64,000 nt of DNA from Anolis carolinensis (Eukaryota): positions 15,120,590 to 15,184,589 of the forward strand of contig NW_026943825.1 in assembly GCF_035594765.1 (NCBI RefSeq), in the 5' to 3' direction. Of this stretch, positions 5,447 through 61,260 are shown piece after piece. A program made the position numbers and the translations under genes. The notes beneath the pieces are model-generated. The model was not told where the DNA came from and made no database searches. It worked only from the letters and a program-made list of their open reading frames with translations. Every line of letters begins with the position of its first letter. Within the stretch, counting starts at the first letter, position 1.

Positions 5447-5932
5447 ATGTCCTCTGATAGCTTCCAGTGCACGCAACCTTGCAAGGCACCTCCCCAGTGC
5501 AAGAAAACTGTCCCTCCCCCTCAGGAGTGCTGTCCACCTCCCCAGAAGTGCTGTCCACCTCCACAGGAGTGTTGTCCACCTCCTCAGAAATGTTGTCCTC
5601 CTCCTCCACAGAAATGCTGTCCTCCTCCTCAGGAGTGCTGTCCTCCTCCTCCTCAGAAATGTTGTCCACCACCTCCTCAGAAATGTTGTCCACCACCTCC
5701 TCAACAATGTTGTCCACCTCCTCCTCAGCAATGTTGTCCACCTCCTCCTCAGCAATGTTGTCCACCTCCTCCTCAACAATGTTGTCCACCTCCTCCTCAG
5801 CAATGTTGTCCACCACCTCAGGAGTGTTGCCCACCCCCCCAGAAATGCTGTCCACCTCCTGAGCAATGCTGCATACCCCAATGCCCACCTCCTCAGCAGT
5901 GCTGTCCACCTCAGAATCCCAAAGGCTTCTGA
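5447..5932 (+). CDS. Single-coding-exon epidermal differentiation protein rich in Pro, Cys and Gln (EDPQ/SPRR-like SEDC protein), 161 aa
   Basis: Acceptor ttcgttgtcttctag|G at 5425/5426, ATG at 5447. Protein MSSDSFQCTQPCKAPPQCKK followed by about 17 PPP(P)Q[K/Q/E]CC repeats, ending PQNPKGF*. Lies next to EDKM, where lizard EDPQ genes are recalled to sit; exact paralog number not assigned. Confidence 0.9.
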   Translation: MSSDSFQCTQPCKAPPQCKKTVPPPQECCPPPQKCCPPPQECCPPPQKCCPPPPQKCCPPPQECCPPPPQKCCPPPPQKCCPPPPQQCCPPPPQQCCPPPPQQCCPPPPQQCCPPPPQQCCPPPQECCPPPQKCCPPPEQCCIPQCPPPQQCCPPQNPKGF

Positions 5933-18545: not shown

Positions 18546-18868
18546 ACACATCAACCTCTGGCTTCCTTGCAGTTTGGGAAAGTGGGTGGTGGATGATGAA
18601 GTTGCCTTCTGGTCAAACCTGCTCTGCTATTGTTGTCGATCTTCACTGTTTGGTTGGAATCCTCCCAGATGATCATACGGTGATTAGAAGGCATCTACCC
18701 ACAAGTGGGTGGAAGGTAGTGTGGAAGTGGTCAGCCCTTGGCCTCGGATGGAATTGAGGAAGACACAGAGGGAGAGTCTTTCCTACCCAATGGAAAAGAG
18801 AGAAATGAGGAAATGGTGGCCCATGGACCACCATATTTGTCAGTGGAAAAGGCATGCTTGGAGGGCAG

Positions 18869-19430
18869 TGGAGGTCTTTGAGGAGAGGTTGGATGGCCAT
18901 GGAGGGCGGTGGAGGACTTTGAGAAGAGGTTGGATGGCCATAGAAGGCGGTGGAGGTCTTCGAGAAGAGGTTGGATGACCATAGAGGGCGGTGGAGGTCT
19001 TTGAGAAGAGGTTGGATGGCCATGGAGGGCGGTGGAGGACTTTGAGAAGAGGTTGGATGGCCATGGAGGGTGGTGGAGGTCTTCGAGAAGAGGTTGGATG
19101 GCCATAGAAGGCGGTGGAGGTCTTCGAGAAGAGGTTGGATGACCATAGAGGGCGATGGAGGTCTTCAAGAAGAGGTTGGATGGCCATGGAGGGCGGTGGA
19201 GGTCTTCGAGAAGAGGTTGGATGGCCATGGAGGGTGGTGGAGGTCTTCGAGAAGAGGTTGGATTGCCATAGAGGGAGGTGGAGGACTTTGAGAAGAGGTT
19301 AGATGGCCATAGAGGGAGGTGGAGGTCTTTGAGAAGAGGTTGGATGGCCATGGAGGGCAGTGGAGGTATTTGAGAAGAGGTTGGAAAGCCATGGAGGGCA
19401 GTTGAGGTCTTCAAGAAGAGGATGAATGGT
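18869..19430 (+). repeat. 41-bp minisatellite (about 14 copies) derived from a CR1 3' end
   Basis: Unit ggaggtcttcgagaagaggttggatggccatggagggcggt matches the CR1 segment ggaggcttttaagcagaggctggatggccat (compare 30557-30590 on -) and runs into a CR1-like tail. Confidence 0.8.
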
Positions 19431-19843
19431 CATCTTTTGGGAGTGCTGCAGTTAGGTATCTATGTATAGAAAGAGGTTGGACTCTTGGGGGTCTTTAAAA
19501 GTGATTGTTCTATGATTCCATGTTTTACATGGACTCTAGATTTCTGCTAGACCCCTACTTCCAAACCTCACTACACCCCAAATTGAAGGTTAGTGATGTA
19601 ACCTACATTCAGTAAAGCACCATCCCAGGAATGGGGGCGGGATAAGGAATAGTTTTGGGAATGAAATCAGGTCAATGGAGAAGGTCCATGGCTAAACCTT
19701 TCACTGTTGTGACTCTAACAGAAGCAGACCAACCACTGTAAATATCCTTTTACTATAACAGTAGCATTGGTCAAGTGGTCCCTGGTCAAGTGGTCTTTGG
19801 TCAAAAAAAAAAGCTTGGGAACTACTGAGATAGATATCTAGAG

Positions 19844-28619: not shown

Positions 28620-29144
28620 ATCTATCTGTCCTTATGCGATAATATTGAAACCAGGAAATATATTTTATCTAATTTGTTCATTTCCTGTTGTGTTTTTAAT
28701 GCCCAATTCCCATTTTTTTATTATTAATAGATCATTATATTTAAGCCAATTTCCCCACCCTATTCTTCTTCTTTGGGAGGCCTCTAATGGTGATATCCAT
28801 AATGGTGATTTTTCATATAACTTTTTTTATATTTCTCCCATATTTTAAGAATTGAGGACCTTATAAAACGAAATTATTTTCTATCTTTTTTTTTTTCATA
28901 CCAGAGATAAGAGTGCCACCCTAATCTCAGGTCTATTCCCTTCAGATTCAAAAGTTTTGCTATTTTCAAGTTTTGCCCAATCTTTGGCCCACAATAGTGC
29001 TGCCGCCTCAAAGTATAGTTTTAAATCAGGTGTAGCTAGACCTCCCCTCTTTCTTTCATCAATCATGTATTTTACTTTAATTCTGGGTTTCTGTTTCTTT
29101 TCTTTTCTTTTCTTTTGCCAAATAAACTTCATTATATCTTTATA
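28620..29144 (-). mobile_element. L1 ORF2 fragment abutting the solo LTR
   Basis: MKFIWQ...KPRIKVKYMIDERKRGGLATPDLKLYFEAA is a typical L1 post-RT motif. Confidence 0.8.
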
Positions 29145-30299
29145 TGTTATGGTTGAGCCTTATGGCTCCGATACTGGGAGACGTGGTCGTAAGACTCCTC
29201 GGGAGTCAGATACTCTCGAGGAGCGAGAAAGGAAGCGGCTGCGGGACTTATTTGCAGAACCATCTGACGAGGATTCCTTTGAGGGTTTTACTGAGAGAAT
29301 GGAGGAAGAGATGGTTAGCTCAGAGGAGGATGACATGGAATGGACTCGTGTGAGGGAGGATTTGGGTGCCACTGGCAATGATAGTATGGAAGGCGATTGG
29401 GGACCTTCAGGATTAGACCCGTGGACAAGCTGGAGGGATGGGACGGGATCCACAGCTGGGGATGCTGTGGGGCGTAGTCAAAGGTGTTTCAGCTCTGATG
29501 AGGAAAGTGATGAGGAAACGCCTGGAATTAGGGTAACAGCTGATAGTGATGAGGAGCTGTAAACTGGCATAAAATGGGGTTTGGAAGCAATGGCTAATTG
29601 CGTTGGGCAAGGTAATCTGGACGAACGCTTGGGCTCTGTGTGGGAAATTCCTGAAGACGGGTGTGATTCGTTTGCTGACTACGTAAGTTACCAAGGACAC
29701 TGGGCATAGACGGCGGGAGGAACTGTGTGGGCTTTTGTTGTGCAACCTGTGCTTAATCTTAATAGCTTGGACCTCCGTCGTCTTCTTGACGGACGCCATC
29801 TGTTTATTCTGGACTGACTGACTGACTGACTGACTACGGCCTCGGACTCTCCTTCCTGTGATTATCGTTGGACCTGGTGAACTACAAACGTCTGTACCTG
29901 CCTTACGACCTTCGGACCGGATTGGAACTTCGCTGACCGCTTCTGCCCTTGAATGCTGCGTTTGTATCTGGAAATTGCTTGCTGTGTGGAGGAGTAACCT
30001 CTTAGTTACTCAAACATAGCTTTTGGCAGCAGAGAAGCATCTGCTGCCAGTTTTTTGTATTCCTTTGAACCTTTTGTTCACCAGCTTTTGTTTGTTTTAG
30101 TCCCAGGCTGAAGTAAGCTTTTTTGGTTTAACCCGGATTAAACTCCGGTTTAATCCGGTTTATCTTTTGAACGTTTTCCTTGTGTCTTTTTACTTTTAAG
30201 GCCAATGTTTGCCTAGCCCTTGTCTTTTACGGGCATTTTTGGTTCTGTAACTCCAATAAACTTTGTTATATCTTATCTTGTGGCATTCTGTCCTTGACA
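29145..30299 (+). mobile_element. Solo LTR (Gypsy/BEL-like), 1155 bp, 5-bp TSD TTATA
   Basis: TGTTA...TGACA termini; TTATA at 29140-29144 and 30300-30304; CATAAAA at 29568-29574; AATAAA at 30255-30260; CpG-rich, so probably young. Confidence 0.85.
29149..29562 (+). CDS. LTR (U3)-encoded 137-aa acidic protein with a basic N-terminal cluster and an FxGF motif
   Basis: Uninterrupted ATG-to-TAA ORF starting 4 nt inside the LTR: MVEPYGSDTGRRGRKTPRESDTLEERERKRLRDLFAEPSDEDSFEGFTERMEEEMVSSEEDD...SSDEESDEE...DSDEEL*. Expression not shown. Confidence 0.5.
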   Translation: MVEPYGSDTGRRGRKTPRESDTLEERERKRLRDLFAEPSDEDSFEGFTERMEEEMVSSEEDDMEWTRVREDLGATGNDSMEGDWGPSGLDPWTSWRDGTGSTAGDAVGRSQRCFSSDEESDEETPGIRVTADSDEEL

Positions 30300-30466
30300 T
30301 TATATCCATCCTGAGGAACAAAGGCCTCTCCAAGCTCACCACAAGTAAGTTTCTGCTGCTTATGAAACGTGGTTCTGCCACTCTGCTGTATTTTTGAGGA
30401 ATCACCCCAGAAGAGAGTTATTTTGAGTCTAACCACTCAATAGATCCCCAACACCTGCTCTAAATA

Positions 30467-45523: not shown

Positions 45524-47534
45524 TCGTCTTTCTTTCCTTCCACTCTTCATTCTCCCTTCTCCAGCTTTAAAAGAGCCCATCTCTGTGGCAATATGGTTCT
45601 GTGGCTCTTTCCTTCCTTCCTTCCTTTTTTTTCATTGTAAACCTCGTTTGCAACTTTAAGCCTGCCAAGTTTCAGAACGTTTCGGACATCCACTAATTTT
45701 TCAGAAAGTTTTAAAGTTTTTACAAATGTTTTGTCAAAAAAAACTACAAGAGATATCCCCTTGAATTTCTGCACAGTTACTCAACAGAAGAAGGGCATTA
45801 ACCCTGCAAAGTGTCATTCGTCTACTGATCTTTAGGGATTTTAAAAAGTTTTTTTTCTCCTACTAACAACTAGAGTTGTGCACAGAATTCGTTTCTCCCG
45901 TTGCTTTCATTTCTTTCGTTTCTTTGGGAGCACGAAATTGGAAGCCTCCTCCCCGCAGAAAAATCAGCTCAATACGAAAGCTGATCCCAGCTCCAAGCCT
46001 GCTTTCATCTGCAGCCAAGCGCCTTCCAGAACCTATCTCCTTATTTAGGAAAGAGAGTTCATGTGTGGTGTGCAGGCCCAGAATGCATGTACGCCTGCCA
46101 GTACCTGCAGCCGAGCACCTCTTACTCTAGACTAAGAGTAAGAGGCGCTTGGCTGCAGGCACTGCAGGCACTCGCACTTTCCAGGACTGCATGCCATGCC
46201 ACACATGCACTCTCTTTCCAAGGAGAGTGTGTGTGTGGCATGGCGTGGTGTGTAAGCCCAGAAAGCATACACGCCTGCCAGTACCTGCAGCCGAGCACCT
46301 CTTACTCTAGACTAAGAGTAAGAGATGCTTGGCTGCAGGCACTGCAGGCACTCACACTTTCCAGTACTGCATGCCATGCCACACATGCACTCTCTTTCCA
46401 AGGAGAGTGTGAGTGTGGCATGGCATGGTGTGTAGCCCCAGAAAGCTTACACGCCTGCCAGTACCTGCAGCCAAGCACCTCTTACTCTAGACTGAGAGTA
46501 AGAGATGCTTGGCTGCAGGCACTGCAGGCACTCACACTTTCCAGGACTGCATGCCATGCCACACACACACTCCCTTCCCAAGGAGAGTGTGAGTGTGGCA
46601 TGGCATGGTGTGTAGGCCCAGAAAGCATACACGCCTGCCAGTACCTGCATCCAAGCACCTCTTACTCTAGACTAAGAGTAAGAGACGCTTGGCTGTAGGC
46701 ACTGCAGGCACTCACACTATCCAGTACTGCATGCCATGCCACACACGCACTCTCTTTCCAAGGAGAGTGTGAGTGTGGCATGGCGTGGGGTGTAGGCCCA
46801 AAAAGCATACACGCCTGCCAGTACCTGCAGCCGAGCACCTCTTACTCTAGACTAAGAGAAACTTGGCTGCAGGCACTGCAGGCACTTGCACTTTCCAGGA
46901 CTGCATGCCATGCCACACACGCACTCTTTCCAAGGAGAATGTGAGTGTGGCATGGCATGTATGCTCAGAAAGCATGCATGCCTGCCAGTGCCTGCAGCTG
47001 AGCGCCTCCTCTAGAGTAGAAAGCAGGTAAGAAGCCTCCCTAAACCCTGCGCTGGGAAGGCGAAGCCCCATAATAGTCCGATAGAAAACGGATCTTTCGG
47101 GGTCCCATATGGAAAACAGATATCTGCCCTCCCAATTTCGTGAGTCTCTGAAAAAATGGATTGGGCCCACACCGAAAGCGGGTTAAGGTTTACCCAGAAT
47201 GCACAACCCTACTAACTCCACAAGAGACCGGCTTTGTGGAAAGCTGTGTGATTTGCTAACAAGGAAATAAACAGCATGCAACTGCCATTGTCAATCACAT
47301 CAGACCCCTCGCACCCCCATCCCCACCCCAGACAATTACGAAGTACGTTTCATTGAAAGAAACACAGCTTGAAATGCGCTGAAACAACAAATCTTTACTA
47401 ATCTCTGAAATGTTTCAGAGGCTTCTGTTGCATTTTGTAATGCTTCAGAGGGGTCCCATTCCGATTAGTAATTTGGAGATTTGTATTAAATCTCTGAATT
47501 GTGAAACAGACCTTCAAAGCTTGGTATAGTCCAA

Positions 47535-47876: not shown

Positions 47877-48179
47877 TTTGAATAGTTTCGAGGAGCAACC
47901 TAGAATGAATAAGGAGAAAATGGGCACAATCAGTTCATTTCTCTTTCTATCCACATTCTTTATACAAAACAAATCTTATATACATCTTCAGGATAAGTCT
48001 CTTTTATCTGAAATACTTGGGTGAAGTTTCCTGTATTTTGGATTTGAGGTGGGGGAAGAATGGCTATGATAGAAAACTAGAAAGGAATTGGATATTCTAG
48101 CTGCACAAAAGGGGAATTCCAAACTGAATAGTTCCTGCCTCCCATTTCCATCAACCTTATCTGGGAAGTTGGTGAAGAA

Positions 48180-49400
48180 ACAGACAAAAGAACCTTGGTA
48201 GACAGTAGAATCTTTGGAGGAAACAGAAGAAGAACCTTTGTCTCCAGACAGAAGAAGCTTTAGAGGAAACAATAGAAGAATCTTTGGAGAAAACAGACAG
48301 AAGAATCTTTGGAGAAAAGAGATGGAAGAACCTTGATCTCCAGATAGAATAACACTTGGTGAAAAGAGATAGAAGAACCTTGGTCTCCAGAGATAAGAAC
48401 ACTTGGAGAAAAGGGATAAGAGAACCTTGGTTTCCAGAGAGAATACCACTTGGAGAAAAGGGATAGAAGAAACTTGATCTCCAGAAAGAAGAACCTTTGG
48501 AGAAAAGAGATAGAAGAACCTTGATCTCCAGATAGAATAACACTTGGAGGAAAGAGATAGAAGAACCTTGATCTATAGATAGAATAACACTTGGAGAAAA
48601 GAGATAAGAGAACCTTGGTCTCCAGAGAAAAAAACCTTTGGAGAAAAGAGATGGAAGAACCTTGATCTCCATAGAGAAGAACCTTTGGAGAAAAGAGATA
48701 GAAGAACCTTGATCTCCAGATAGAATAACATTTGGAGAAAAGAGATAAGAGAACCTTGGTTTCCAGAGACAATAACGCTTGGAGAAAAGGGATAGAAGAA
48801 ACTTGATCTCCAGAGAGAATAATACTTGGAGAAAAAGATATAGAAGAACCTTGATCTCCAGACGGAATAACAGTTGGAGAAAAGAGATAAGAGAACCTTG
48901 GTTTCCAGAGAGAATAACACTTGGAGAAAAGTGATAGAAGAAACTTGGTCTCCAGAGAGAAGAACACTTGGAGAAAAGTGATAGAAGAACTTTGGTCTCC
49001 AAATAGAATAACACTTGGAGAAAAGAGATAAGAGAACCTTGGTTTCCAGAGACAATAACGCTTGGAGAAAAGGGATAGAAGAAACTTGATCTCCAGAGAC
49101 AAGAACCTTTGGAGAAAAGAGATAGAGGAACCTTGGTCTCCAGATAGAAGGAGAAAAGAGACAGAAGAACCTTGGTCTCCAGAGAGAAGAAGCTTTGGAG
49201 AAAAGAGATAGAAGAACCTTGGGTTCCAGATGGAAGAAACTTTGGAGAAAAGAGATGGAAGAACCTTGGGTTCCAGATGGAAGAAACTTTGGAGAAAAGA
49301 GATGGAAGAACCTTGATTTCCTTTGTCTCAAAACAGAAGAACCTTTAGAGAAAGCAGATAGAAGAACCTTAGTTTCCAGACAGAAGAAGTTGTGGCAGAA
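48180..49400. repeat. About 47-bp purine-rich minisatellite, about 25 copies, intron 1 of S100 gene B
   Basis: Unit ttggagaaaagagatagaagaaccttgatctccagatagaataacac. Confidence 0.9.
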
Positions 49401-49460
49401 ATAAAAGAGGAGGACATACAGAAGACAGAGGGAAAAGTAAATCTGCTCATTGAAACTTAC

Positions 49461-55231: not shown

Positions 55232-56959
55232 TCATTGAGCATGAAGGTTGTTATGGGTCGCGACCGTGACCTGGACAACCAACTGCATGAATTCCTGGAA
55301 AGACAGCTCCTTGTCTTGATCTTGGTCCAGCTGCTTGAACATTTCCTCGACAACAAGCGGGTTGACTTGGTTCTGACCGCCAAAAAAGAAAGACATTTAT
55401 GAGACACATCTATACATATGATAAAAGTGAAAATACTCAGGAGGCACCAATGGCCCTCCGTCCAATGACATTGCGGGTTATAGTGAGCACCATGAACATG
55501 TCCAAGAGCTCGGCCAATGACCTCCACAAACACCATCCTGACCACCACCCAAGTGAAGGCAGACAATTTCATCCTAGATTTTCTGTTTTTCCTCCACCAC
55601 AGACATCCCAGTGTTTCTGACTCTCTCCATTAGTGAGGAATTTGCATGATCCCGCCCACTGTCTCTCCCTTAACCCTTTCCTATTCTTTTCTATGGCACG
55701 CAGCAAACAGAGGAATTGATCAGCAACTGAACATGCTAGAGAGCTAGTATCAACATAAAGTCCATCCTACTTGGATAGAATAGGGAGAAAAAAAACCATT
55801 GATTCCTACACTGATCTTCATTCTGCTTATTCAGTTTAGAATAGCTGCTTAGATAATATTAAGATCCACGTAGCTCCTAAATCTTAAAACTCTCATTTAA
55901 TTTGAGAATTTGGCTAACAGCAAGCAGAGCGTGAAGTGCCATGTGGTTGTAGATACTTATATTTGAGCATTCAGCTCACAGCAAGCAGAGCATGAAGTAC
56001 CATGTGGCTGTAGATACTTATAGTTTGAGCATTTGGCTCACAGCAAGCAGAGCGTGAAGTACCATGTGGCTGTAGATACTTATAGTTTGAGCATTCAGCT
56101 CACAGCAAGCAGAACATGAAGTGCCATGTGGCTGTAGATACTTATAGTTTGAGCATTCAGCTCACAGCAAGCAGTGCATGAAGTACCATGTGGCTGTAGA
56201 TACTTATAGTTTGAGCATTCGGCTCACAGCAAGCAGAGCATGAAGTGCCATGTGGCTGTAGATACTTATAGTTTGAGCATTCGGCTCACAGCAAGCAGAG
56301 CATGAAGTGCCATGTGGCTGTAGATACTTATATTTGAGCATTCAGCTCACAACAAGCAGAGCATGAAGTACCATGTGGCTGTAGATACTTATAGTTTGAG
56401 CATTCGGCTCACAGCAAGTAGAGCATGAAGTGCCATGTGGCTGTAAAGAATTTAGAACTTAGGAATCAAAGATCCAGAGTTCCTAGGCCAAAATTTCATT
56501 ACCATTATATATATATAGATGTTACTGGGGGGAGAAGCCCCCAAATGATGGCACAGGAGACAAGATGGAATGGTCTTCACTCTGGCCCCACAGCATCAGT
56601 TCTGAACGCCTGAATATTGCAACTCTATTTAACCATGGAAGCTAGAAACTTCATTTAATCTCGGAATATGCAGTCCATCTAAACTCGGAATATGTAGGCC
56701 CCATTGAACCCTAAATCTGAAAAGAGGGATATTTTCAAGTCATGGACAATGGGGTACAGAGTCCATAGATACACAGAGCTGATGGTGTCCCCCCGCCTGA
56801 CTCCATCCATGCCAGACTCACCTTCAAGAACTCCGCCAGCTCCTTCTGGATCAGGTTTTTGGTCTCGCCTTTGCTCAGCTTGTCCGGATGGGGTTTCTGG
56901 ATCGAATATTGGTGGAAGACATTGATGATGATGTCGATGGCATTTTCCATCTGAGACAT
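55232..56959 (-). CDS. Calgranulin-like S100 protein C (S100A9/A12-like core, no tail), 92 aa; coding exons 56959-56822 and 55372-55232
   Basis: MSQMENAIDIIINVFHQYSIQKPHPDKLSKGETKNLIQKELAEFLK|NQVNPLVVEEMFKQLDQDQDKELSFQEFMQLVVQVTVATHNNLHAQ*. GT-AG phase-0 intron, AATAAA at 55036-55031. Confidence 0.93.
55915..56480. repeat. 61-62-bp tandem repeat, about 9 copies, intron 2 of S100 gene C
   Basis: Unit cagcaagcagagcatgaagtgccatgtggctgtagatacttatagtttgagcattcggctca; inverted copy at about 53030-53155. Confidence 0.9.
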
Positions 56960-58615: not shown

Positions 58616-58744
58616 CATCAAACGTATTGGACTTTCTAACATAAGGTTGTGTCTACCACTCAAGTTGGAAATAAGACCCACGGAAGAGTAGGAGACTAAG
58701 GATGCAACGACACTGTAGAACAGGCATCCCCAGACTAAGGCCAC

Positions 58745-59075
58745 CTATGTCTTATGAGATTGTCTAGATGTTCTTTGAAGGTCTCTTTGCTTACCTATGG
58801 TCTTATGAGATTGTCTAGATGTTCTTTGAAGGTCTCTTTGCTTAGCTACGGCCTTATGAGACCATCTAGATGGCTTTTGGAGGTCATTTTCCTTACCTAT
58901 GGTCCTATGAAACTGTCTAGATGGCCTTTGAGGGTCCCTTTCCTTACCTATGGTCTTATTAGATCATCTAGATGGCTTTTGGAGATCACTTTCCTTACCT
59001 ATGGTCCTATGAAACCATCTAGATGGTCTTTGGGGGGCCCTTTCCTTACCTATGGTCTTATGAGACCATCTAGAT
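58745..59075. repeat. About 52-bp tandem repeat, intron 1 of S100 gene C
   Basis: Recurrent cttacctatggtcttatgagaccatctagatgg... Confidence 0.75.
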
Positions 59076-59624
59076 CAGGGGTCCCTAAATGAAAGCCCGT
59101 GGGCCGGATGCGGTCCTCCAAGGTCCTTTACCAGACCCCTGTCCTAAACTTTAGACTTAGGGTTGACCTAAGTCTGAAACGACTTGAAGTCAGACAACAA
59201 CAACAATCTTGGTTTTGGACTATTTCATCCTAGTCTGGCCCCCTAACAGTCTGAGGGATTGTGAATTGGCCCTCTACTTAAAAAGTTTGAGGATCCCTGC
59301 TGTAGAATGAACTCGGGTTGATACCACTTCAATTGCCTTGGCTCAATAGTATGGAATTATAGGAGCTATAGTTTGGTGAGAATCCAACACTCTTTGGCAG
59401 AGAAGACTAGCAAAATTACAGTTCCCAGGATTCTACAGCACTGAGCCATGACAGTTAAGGTAGTGCCAACCCACATTTATTCTACATAGATGCAACCAAA
59501 GTAAGGACTGATGGTAGTTACATACAGCAACATCTGGAAGACTGAACTTTCTTTCCAGTCTTTCTTGAGAGTAAGCATACTCAGATACAAGCACAAGATC
59601 AGAGTCAGCAAAGCTTTGGCTTAC

Positions 59625-60069: not shown

Positions 60070-61260
60070 GGATTTCCAGGGCTGTTTGGGGGAACCCACA
60101 CATGTTACAGTGCTGTTTATGGAGACCCTCCTAATTTCCAGTGTTATTTTGAAGATCCACCTGACTTCCAGTGTTAGTTATAGAAACCCACTTCATTTCT
60201 CATTTTTTGGAGGTCCACCTAATTTCGAGTATTGTTTTGAAAGATTCCCCTCATTTCCAGTGATATTTATGGAAGTCCACCTAATTTCCAGGGCTGTTTT
60301 TGGAGGTCCATCTAATTTCCAGTGGCATTTGGTAAGACCCCCTAATTTCCAGTGATATTTATGGAAGTCCACCTAATTTCCAGGGCTGTTTTTGGAGGTC
60401 CATCTAATTTCCAGTGGCATTTGGCAAGACCCCCTAATTGCCAGTGATATTTATGGAAGTCCACCTAATTTCCAGGGCTGTTTTTGGAGGTCCATCTAAT
60501 TTCCAGTGGCATTTGGCAAGACCCCCTAATTTCCAGTGATATTTATGGAAGTCCACCTAATTTCCAGGGCTGTTTTTGGAGGTCCATCTAATTTCCAGTG
60601 GCATTTGGCAAGACCCCCTAATTGCCAGTGATATTTATGGAAGTCCACCACATTTCCAGAACTGTTTTTGGAGGTCCACCTAATTTCCAGGGCTGTGTGA
60701 TGAGACTCACTATTCTCCAGTGATATTTCTGGAAGCCCACCAAATTTCCAGGGCTGTTTTTGGAGGTCCACCTAATTTCAACTATTGTTTTGAGAGGTCC
60801 ACCTAATTTTTATGCTGTTTGGTGAGACCTCATAATTTCCAGTGTTATTTATGAAGGTTCAGCTCATTTCTAGGACTGTTTTTGGAAGTCCACCAAATTT
60901 CTAGGGCTGTTTTTGGAGGTCCACCTAATTTCAAGAATTGTTTTGAGAGGTACGCCTGATTTTTTATGCTGTTTGCTGAGACCTCATGATTGCCAGTACT
61001 GTTTGTGGGGGCCCATCTAATTTCTAGTATAGTTTTGAAACATACACCTTTTTTCCAGGGCAATTTTGGGACACCTACCTAATTTCCACTGCTGTTTGTG
61101 GAGGTCCACCTAATTTCAAGATTGTTTGGAGAAGTCCATTTAATTTCAAGCATTGTTTGGAGAGGTCCACCTAACTTCTAGTGCTGTTTTGGTGGAATCC
61201 ACCTGATTTCCTGTGTTGTTTGTGGAGGTCCAACTAATTTCCAATGCTGTTTTAGGAGAC
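60070..61260. repeat. About 30-33-bp degenerate minisatellite (90-bp higher-order unit) upstream of S100 gene C
   Basis: Recurrent ggaggtccacctaatttccag...tgttttt. Confidence 0.85.

Follow-up and report, generated by a model that had tools for sequence, protein, structure and literature searches.

Introduction

Ty3/Gypsy elements belonging to the Tf1/sushi group (V-clade chromoviruses, Metaviridae) carry gag followed by protease, reverse transcriptase, RNase H and integrase (PR-RT-RH-IN), with SH3_Tf2-1/GPY-F, Ty3 capsid and DUF4939 domains, duplicate 5 bp of their target site and, as described in PMC6317226, prime themselves with an 11-nt primer binding site (PBS) complementary to the 5′ end of their own RNA. 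Several integrases end in a peptide that tethers them to a host chromatin protein, as for MLV with BET proteins and Ty5 with Sir4, and the review text in which these cases are presented predicts that more will be found (PMC4176367). In plant CRM group A elements, a putative targeting motif, the CR motif, is encoded in the 3′ LTR, and no partner is identified for it in the available part of the report (PMC3059260). The best-known tether is that of lentiviral integrase to LEDGF, which the same review text reports as specific to lentiviruses among retroviral genera (PMC4176367). HIV integrase presents a prearranged LEDGF site, whereas the cellular partners of LEDGF use an unstructured IBM (PMC10854676, available text).

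These host motifs, or TIMs, are found in JPO2/CDCA7L, MLL1, IWS1, PogZ, MED1 and JIL-1. As outlined in the accessible portion of PMC9987994, a TIM consists of a helix, an acidic linker and an optional FxGF; CK2 is the kinase of the linker, many TIMs work by the helix alone, and no known partner of LEDGF or HRP2 can do without FxGF. TIMs can occur as serial repeats (two in JPO2, three in IWS1), and the only viral mimics of TIMs named in that portion are lentiviral integrases (PMC9987994). In Drosophila, JIL-1 is described as engaging JASPer via FxGF (10.1101/624023, available text).

In this study, we analysed an LTR retrotransposon of Anolis carolinensis that combines traits of these systems. 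It shares with the Tf1/sushi group all the traits listed above, but it has no chromodomain and its Pol runs 138 codons into U3, ending in a TIM-like acidic tail. The tail has the anchored helix, the acidic CK2 linker, the FxGF and, in a sister family, the serial repeats of host TIMs; unlike them, it sits on the integrase of a mobile element, and its binding is a prediction. Compared with the lentiviral tether, the predicted host domain and the predicted bias to H3K36me chromatin are the same, but the Anolis element would use the cellular IBM type, on a disordered tail. Like the BET-binding tail of MLV and the targeting domain of Ty5, it would be a disordered C-terminal integrase peptide for a host chromatin protein, although motif and partner differ and the Anolis tail is far longer and LTR-encoded. 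It is unrelated in sequence to the CR motif, and differs from it in pointing to a named host domain. In the paper listings and abstract openings searched, we found neither a retroelement with a TIM nor a host targeting factor of a vertebrate LTR retrotransposon. The family itself is presumably already catalogued in Repbase or Dfam.

Results

The window, a stretch of 64,000 nucleotides, contains an LTR of 1155 bp at 29145-30299 (+ strand), with TG...CA ends that form an imperfect terminal inverted repeat and with the target-site duplication (TSD) TTATA at 29140-29144 and 30300-30304. Because the 64 kb hold neither a second LTR nor an internal region beside it, it is a solo LTR; comparison with two-LTR copies (L031, L032, L051-L055) assigns it to subfamily A1 of a Ty3/Gypsy retrotransposon of Tf1/sushi type. 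Its youth is apparent from DNA matches: a search gave 2836 first-look candidates, and the 40 that were scored are all ~100% identical. The polyadenylation signal AATAAA lies at 30255-30260 (+). Translation of 29149-29562 (+) gives an open frame of 137 codons, acidic (40 D/E) and predicted to be disordered. We thereby recovered what the earlier note had reported from the letters of the window, a young solo LTR holding an intact 137-aa ORF with RRGRK...RERKR, LRDLFAEPSDEDSFEGF and TERMEEEMVSSEE.

Several features can be placed along this frame. The basic cluster RRGRK (29179-29193, +) is a possible nuclear localisation signal, in which R11 alone is nearly invariant. A predicted helix (residues 23-35, 29215-29253, +) ends in the hydrophobic anchor LRDLF of the TIM/IBM-like motif LRDLFAEPSDEDSFEGF (29239-29289, +), which comprises the helix end, a P-S-acidic linker with a CK2 consensus site and FEGF. 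The frame also holds TERMEEEMVSSEE and 13 S/T-x-x-D/E sites. Further downstream are WTRV (29341-29352, +), which corresponds to the helix start of a third TIM repeat of sister family B, the core of that repeat being absent in subfamily A1, and a W-x-x-W-R-D motif (29422-29439, +) retained in families A and B. Across these two families W65, W84, W92 and W95 (window 29341-29439) are invariant, suggesting further linear motifs.

Among the 150 best-scoring A1 protein matches, which are young and ranked by score and hence biased toward intact copies, 147 have no stop in the frame. Since A1 copies are 98-100% alike, the intactness of the frame means little by itself.

Elsewhere in the window we noted a Cys/Pro/Gln-rich ORF of 161 aa (5447-5932, +), the only such ORF found by our filter and one that we take to be of the small-proline-rich or epidermal differentiation complex type. 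Minisatellites lie at 18738-19515 (period 41 bp), 46066-46905 (180 bp), 48174-49424 (47 bp), 55900-56518 (62 bp), 58698-59105 (51 bp) and 60072-61178 (31 bp).

Natural full-length copies were located via LTR pairs ~5.2 kb apart, and in two of them (L031 and L032) the 137-codon frame is the in-frame end of Pol. In all five copies of a further set, picked for having this frame (L051-L055), an unbroken 1214-aa frame runs from the protease through to the LTR stop, and subfamily A3 shows the same in-frame junction in a frame of 1219 aa. Pfam recognised PR, RT, RNase H, IN-H2C2, rve and SH3_Tf2-1 in the 1214-aa Pol but no Chromo domain (PF00385), and Ty3 capsid and DUF4939 in gag. After the SH3/GPY-F domain, 32 residues cross the polypurine tract (PPT) and lead into the LTR-coded tail, so that Pol continues into the 3′ U3 where relatives have the chromodomain. 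The proposal of the earlier note that the solo LTR encodes an acidic protein was thus mistaken, the frame being the C-terminus of Pol/integrase in full-length copies.

In the seven A1 two-LTR copies parsed (7/7), the PBS is not tRNA-like and is complementary over 11 nt to GCGTTGGGCAA at 29600-29610 (+) of the window; the A3 copy examined (1/1) has the same 11-nt complement. Self-priming by a PBS that pairs with the 5′ end of the RNA is given as a trait of the Tf1/sushi group (PMC6317226, available text). Because the self-primer lies ~30 nt past the TATA-like CATAAAA (29568-29574, +), the RNA is predicted to start at ~29600, which makes 29145-29599 (+) the U3 region and places the entire coding tail in it. 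With the frame upstream of the LTR's own predicted promoter, a solo LTR would not transcribe it. As read from sequence, the solo LTR of the window is a passive relic, and the tail would be synthesised within Pol, from the 3′ LTR. Contigs from sequencing runs (three presumed RNA, one presumed DNA) span the junction and U3, and are silent on the start, strand and level of the transcript; in two of these contig sets the predicted R region is covered more deeply, the types of run being guessed.

Two LTRs, gag, the PR-RT-RH-IN order and a PPT characterise the element as Ty3/Gypsy, and together with its PBS they identify it as a self-priming Tf1/sushi-type retrotransposon of A. carolinensis. It is not a chromovirus in the strict sense, the family A element having no chromodomain at the integrase C-terminus; at that very end it has in frame a motif of the kind expected of an integrase targeting tail. 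Neither is the frame an accessory gene of nef/sag type or a stand-alone LTR gene, since it is fused to Pol, is entirely contained in U3, upstream of the predicted start, and has no ATG in family B. TSDs of 5 bp were found in 18 of the 29 loci parsed from 50, in which no target-site motif was visible by eye. Our integrase tree has 14 rows, does not include reference sushi-ichi or Tf1 elements, and leaves the backbone unresolved; the Pfam domains SH3_Tf2-1, Ty3_capsid and DUF4939 agree with membership of the group.

We measured selection on the tail by comparing one natural A1 copy with one natural copy of A3, which is also young (150 matches listed, at 97-100% identity). Over 138 codons, the tail has a dN/dS of 0.20 (Fisher p 6e-10), with 38.5 synonymous and 38.5 non-synonymous differences distributed 19/13/45 over the three codon positions; the values for RT-RH and integrase are 0.03 and 0.04. 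The 20 codons of the motif region hold 10 synonymous versus 4 non-synonymous differences, and the part of the tail after the motif has a dN/dS of 0.25. The tail contains one indel, of 6 nt, as opposed to 14 gaps in the non-coding LTR, most of which are not multiples of three. The observed pN/pS of 0.28 lies below the neutral means of 0.63-0.87 obtained from simulations with transition bias, 86-93% of which acquire a stop. As the dS of the tail (0.64) is lower than that of RT and IN (1.1-1.4), promoter constraint or exchange between LTRs also acts on it. In family B, N/S is 0.39 for variants common to at least three copies versus 0.65 for private ones (p 0.02); for B1 alone, with few shared sites, the two do not differ (0.57 versus 0.55), and the net B1-B2 ratio is 0.50. 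Altogether, these comparisons indicate that the tail is under purifying selection, and the neutral evolution that would have undone the reading of the earlier note is not what we observed.

The TIM-like motif is well kept. FxGF is present in 30/30 A1 and 17/18 A3 frame-kept copies, and over 15 motif units, P, F, G and F are invariant (15/15) and a CK2 site P-[ST]-x-x-[DE] is found in 13, in the same register as in the M1 motif of JPO2. The structural model of the tail contains one helix, formed by residues 23-35 directly before the linker (pLDDT 75-82 in those blocks); the rest is disordered (mean pLDDT 57, pTM 0.21). A short predicted helix with hydrophobic anchors, an acidic CK2-type linker, FxGF and a disordered context are thus all present. 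The motif is more than a chance product: over all six reading frames of the window a TIM-like pattern matched at this place only, and it matched none of 200,000 shuffles of the ORF (1727 for FxGF alone), a figure that is optimistic because the pattern was written after the motif was known.

When a profile of 21 whole tails was compared with 177,635 PDB sequences, the only match at E<=10 was 6EMO, the complex of the LEDGF IBD with JPO2 M1. The match falls on the JPO2/CDCA7L peptide with an E value of 0.2, which is not significant by itself. A profile of the 15 single motif units retrieved the same peptide at E 0.0029, a value to be taken with caution because the units were hand-picked by FxGF. 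The single window peptide matched designed helical proteins only, and not 6EMO, in the PDB, and single-sequence searches with the ORF gave nothing meaningful in Pfam or Atlas. Selection, the triplication of the motif in family B and the profile match to 6EMO all back the resemblance to TIM/IBM motifs claimed earlier.

The likeness to CDCA7L is real but short. The JPO2 peptide in 6EMO reads EVADIFNAPSDDEEFVGFRDD, and the lizard CDCA7L exon, which itself finds 6EMO at E 0.0006, reads LADVFNAPSDDEDFFGF, identical to the window motif at 9/17 residues without gaps. The CDCA7 exon of the lizard is identical at 8/17; its TIM-like segment (L048, minus strand, ~8069-7980) ends in FCGF. The alignment to CDCA7L that the earlier note gave from recall therefore holds for the core, as both the 6EMO peptide and the lizard exon attest; we dropped its x9-SSEE extension, since the lizard CDCA7L exon has SPED there and family B repeats lose the spacing, the human x9-SSEE region lying beyond the end of the 6EMO chain. 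At the DNA level, the window motif and CDCA7L share 30/51 nt, with 7/9 third positions identical (70/109 over 15 related units), and outside the 51-nt motif we found no likeness, blastn giving nothing better than 14-17 nt at E 0.73. Because the DNA likeness ends with the motif and third-position identity is modest, the motif may have been captured from CDCA7L or may have arisen by convergence: of the suggestion that the element captured or mimics a host motif, the resemblance is supported, and for capture from CDCA7L the flanking DNA adds nothing. As to possible host partners, LEDGF is present in Anolis and an HRP2-like exon lies on contig C9. We also observed an intron-less PSIP1/LEDGF processed pseudogene (L038:1501-1803, G000:C2:143718346) with one stop inside the integrase-binding domain.

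Sister families in the Anolis genome give the tail a wider context. Family B was defined from a distant LTR met by chance near CDCA7L and has 1202 candidates. Its tails are ~35% identical to that of the window; its LTR begins TGTTGTAG, in which GTA (Val) replaces the ATG that subfamilies A1-A4 keep at LTR base 5, and the same frame is kept. A search with a PPT-plus-LTR pattern yielded seven distinct loci, three of which have integrase upstream: in L083 and L086 it enters the LTR in frame, and in L088 the junction is the same but lies beyond a frameshift. All family B copies read with internal sequence are old and broken; B is the older sister. Its tail consists of three diverged repeats of helix, P-S/T-acidic linker and FxGF, and all three FxGF are intact in 8/10 B1 and 14/19 B2 frame-kept copies, after 17/27 B1 and 1/20 B2 were dropped as frameshifted or unparsed; family A retains the middle one of these repeats and, from the third, its initial WTRV. 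Conservation of the motif, as FxGF, in related LTR families, on which the reading of the earlier note depended, is thus borne out by A3 and, threefold, by family B.

Family C (L138-L167) has many open frames of 1553-1604 aa, with neither chromodomain nor tail, and stops 10 residues past the SH3 domain in the 30/30 loci read. Since it thrives, the tail is not needed to transpose. A splice-acceptor-like polypyrimidine-CAG tract with an ATG at the start of its LTR was considered and rejected, as it opens just 6 codons. Another tail-less and chromodomain-less Gypsy family, related to C, adjoins a family B copy (L133:1-2826). Family D has a canonical chromodomain and, in 12/12 loci read, the same PPT/GDSVM junction followed by a different LTR-coded tail. 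The junctions of A, B and D indicate that read-through into U3 is common to the group, the TIM families being those without a chromodomain. Family D (L168-L179, e.g. L174:2038-2640, +) is young and its Pol runs ~90 codons into the LTR; its tail, with DEEENLGF/NWGF and a C-terminal RRSARI or RRSLRI, has no match in Pfam or the PDB. To us this RRSARI/RRSLRI end recalls the nucleosome-binding core of HMGN proteins.

Outside A. carolinensis or near-identical records, the tail had no match in protein sets of 5.8 billion and 1.8 billion, and all 20 sequencing runs with the tail come from one organism; this apparent restriction is weak evidence of absence, because transposon proteins are poorly annotated. 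FxGF follows the SH3 domain in 5 of the 149 integrase-end relatives read. Two of these, P0149 (two motifs, residues ~278-345) and P0186 (one, ~478-497), have W-x3-F-acidic-FxGF: the FxGF is preceded by a hydrophobic stretch and by an acidic linker, and the whole follows a Pfam chromodomain and apparently lies before the PPT. PF00385 is present in family D, P0149, P0186, P0170 and P0189. The aromatic cage of chromodomains is described as three residues (PMC3059260, available text), and read by eye, the first and third of these positions look replaced in P0149 and P0186. Their integrases are 43-45% identical to that of family A and ~69% to a Podarcis muralis fragment, and they form a separate branch on the unresolved backbone of the 14-row tree. 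The motif stretch of P0149 matched no TND complex in the PDB; its Atlas match (0.75) is a lead only, and the Anolis tail profile scores P0149 weakly. The FxGF motifs of P0149 and P0186 are possibly an independent gain of TIMs.

Finally, contig-level counts, read by eye from score-ranked lists, gave no sign of gene-rich targeting. Among the matches listed, few copies of the TIM families lie off the six large contigs (31/450, these other contigs being 15.3% of the genome), the counts for families C and D being 22/150 and 4/90. A depletion specific to the TIM families was rejected, with p 0.007 against family C but p 0.49 against family D: as the chromodomain family is likewise scarce there, the scarcity says nothing specific. 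Contig C7 had no match in the five ranked lists (matches listed), and flank GC showed no clear difference.

Discussion

Once the frame is known to be fused to Pol/integrase, the options listed in the earlier note (tethering to H3K36me chromatin, recruitment of elongation factors, evasion of silencing) narrow to one leading mechanism, an integrase tether. On balance we favour the reading that the frame is an integrase tail whose motif would bind the TFIIS-N-type domain of LEDGF/HRP2 and tether the integration complex to H3K36-methylated chromatin. Pol would be made from genomic RNA by gag-pol frameshift and the tail would stay on the processed integrase; CK2 would phosphorylate the acidic linker, the motif would dock in two pockets of the LEDGF/HRP2 domain in the way of host TIMs, and the PWWP reader would then bias insertion toward H3K36-methylated chromatin.

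The motif could also bind LEDGF/HRP2 without choosing a target, by holding the complex on chromatin, by stimulating catalysis, or by recruiting or sequestering readers and so delaying silencing. The TIM sequence evidence fits this equally, we have no targeting signal at contig level, LEDGF is reported to stimulate lentiviral strand transfer in vitro (PMC4176367) and HRP2 and LEDGF are said to serve as histone chaperones (PMC9987994; available sections of both). We nevertheless find it rather unlikely: the tail occupies the exact place of the targeting domain of chromoviruses (PMC3059260, available text), and multiple repeats would suit the avid tethering of a multimeric intasome. That the tail is functional but serves another partner, either a TND protein (TFIIS, IWS1, elongin A, PNUTS, MED26) or an unrelated protein, would give its tryptophan motifs or acidic end more weight than FxGF. 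This agrees with the four tryptophans invariant across A and B, with purifying selection over the whole tail including its post-motif part, and with the many TIMs that use the helix alone; it seems quite improbable, however, given that what stays invariant across three diverged repeats is F-x-G-F and that the accessible review text ties FxGF to LEDGF and HRP2 specifically (PMC9987994).

We regard as very improbable that a separate protein of 137 aa is translated from solo LTRs, beginning at the ATG at LTR base 5, and works in trans in the manner of an accessory protein. This ATG, kept in A1-A4, is flanked by a purine at -3 and a G at +4, and 147/150 best-scoring A1 copies are open, though young and score-ranked; yet the frame is upstream of the predicted start at 29600 and fused to Pol in full-length copies, the ATG codon is inside the terminal inverted repeat, and family B retains frame and motifs with GTA in its place. 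Hardly credible at all is that frame and motif have no role as protein and simply come along with the promoter sequence of an LTR that amplified recently. The near-identity of A1 copies and the success of tail-less family C would fit it, but the codon-position bias, the low dN/dS, the in-frame indel and the FxGF kept in three diverged repeats do not, and the A1-A3 selection test with the neutral simulations largely refutes it.

Returning to the integrase tether, its extension to a wider group appears to us about evenly balanced: squamate Gypsy elements, possibly more than once, would have replaced their chromodomain by host-type TIMs that bind LEDGF/HRP2, or added such TIMs to it, on the tail of the integrase. 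There would be one to three of them, encoded by U3 in Anolis and placed after a chromodomain that looks degenerate in P0149 and P0186.

Tethering to LEDGF has been treated as a lentiviral speciality, and a JPO2-like motif on the integrase of a young, high-copy lizard family would be a second, independent route. If true, these elements would be the first case of a retroelement that exploits the HIV cofactor by mimicking its cellular linear motif, and would converge with lentiviruses on H3K36me targeting. Within one genome, family A with one TIM, B with three, D with a chromodomain and C with neither can serve as natural comparators, which makes the choice of insertion sites by vertebrate Gypsy elements directly testable. 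In these elements, U3 also serves as coding sequence, where integrase tails evolve motifs like those of the host.
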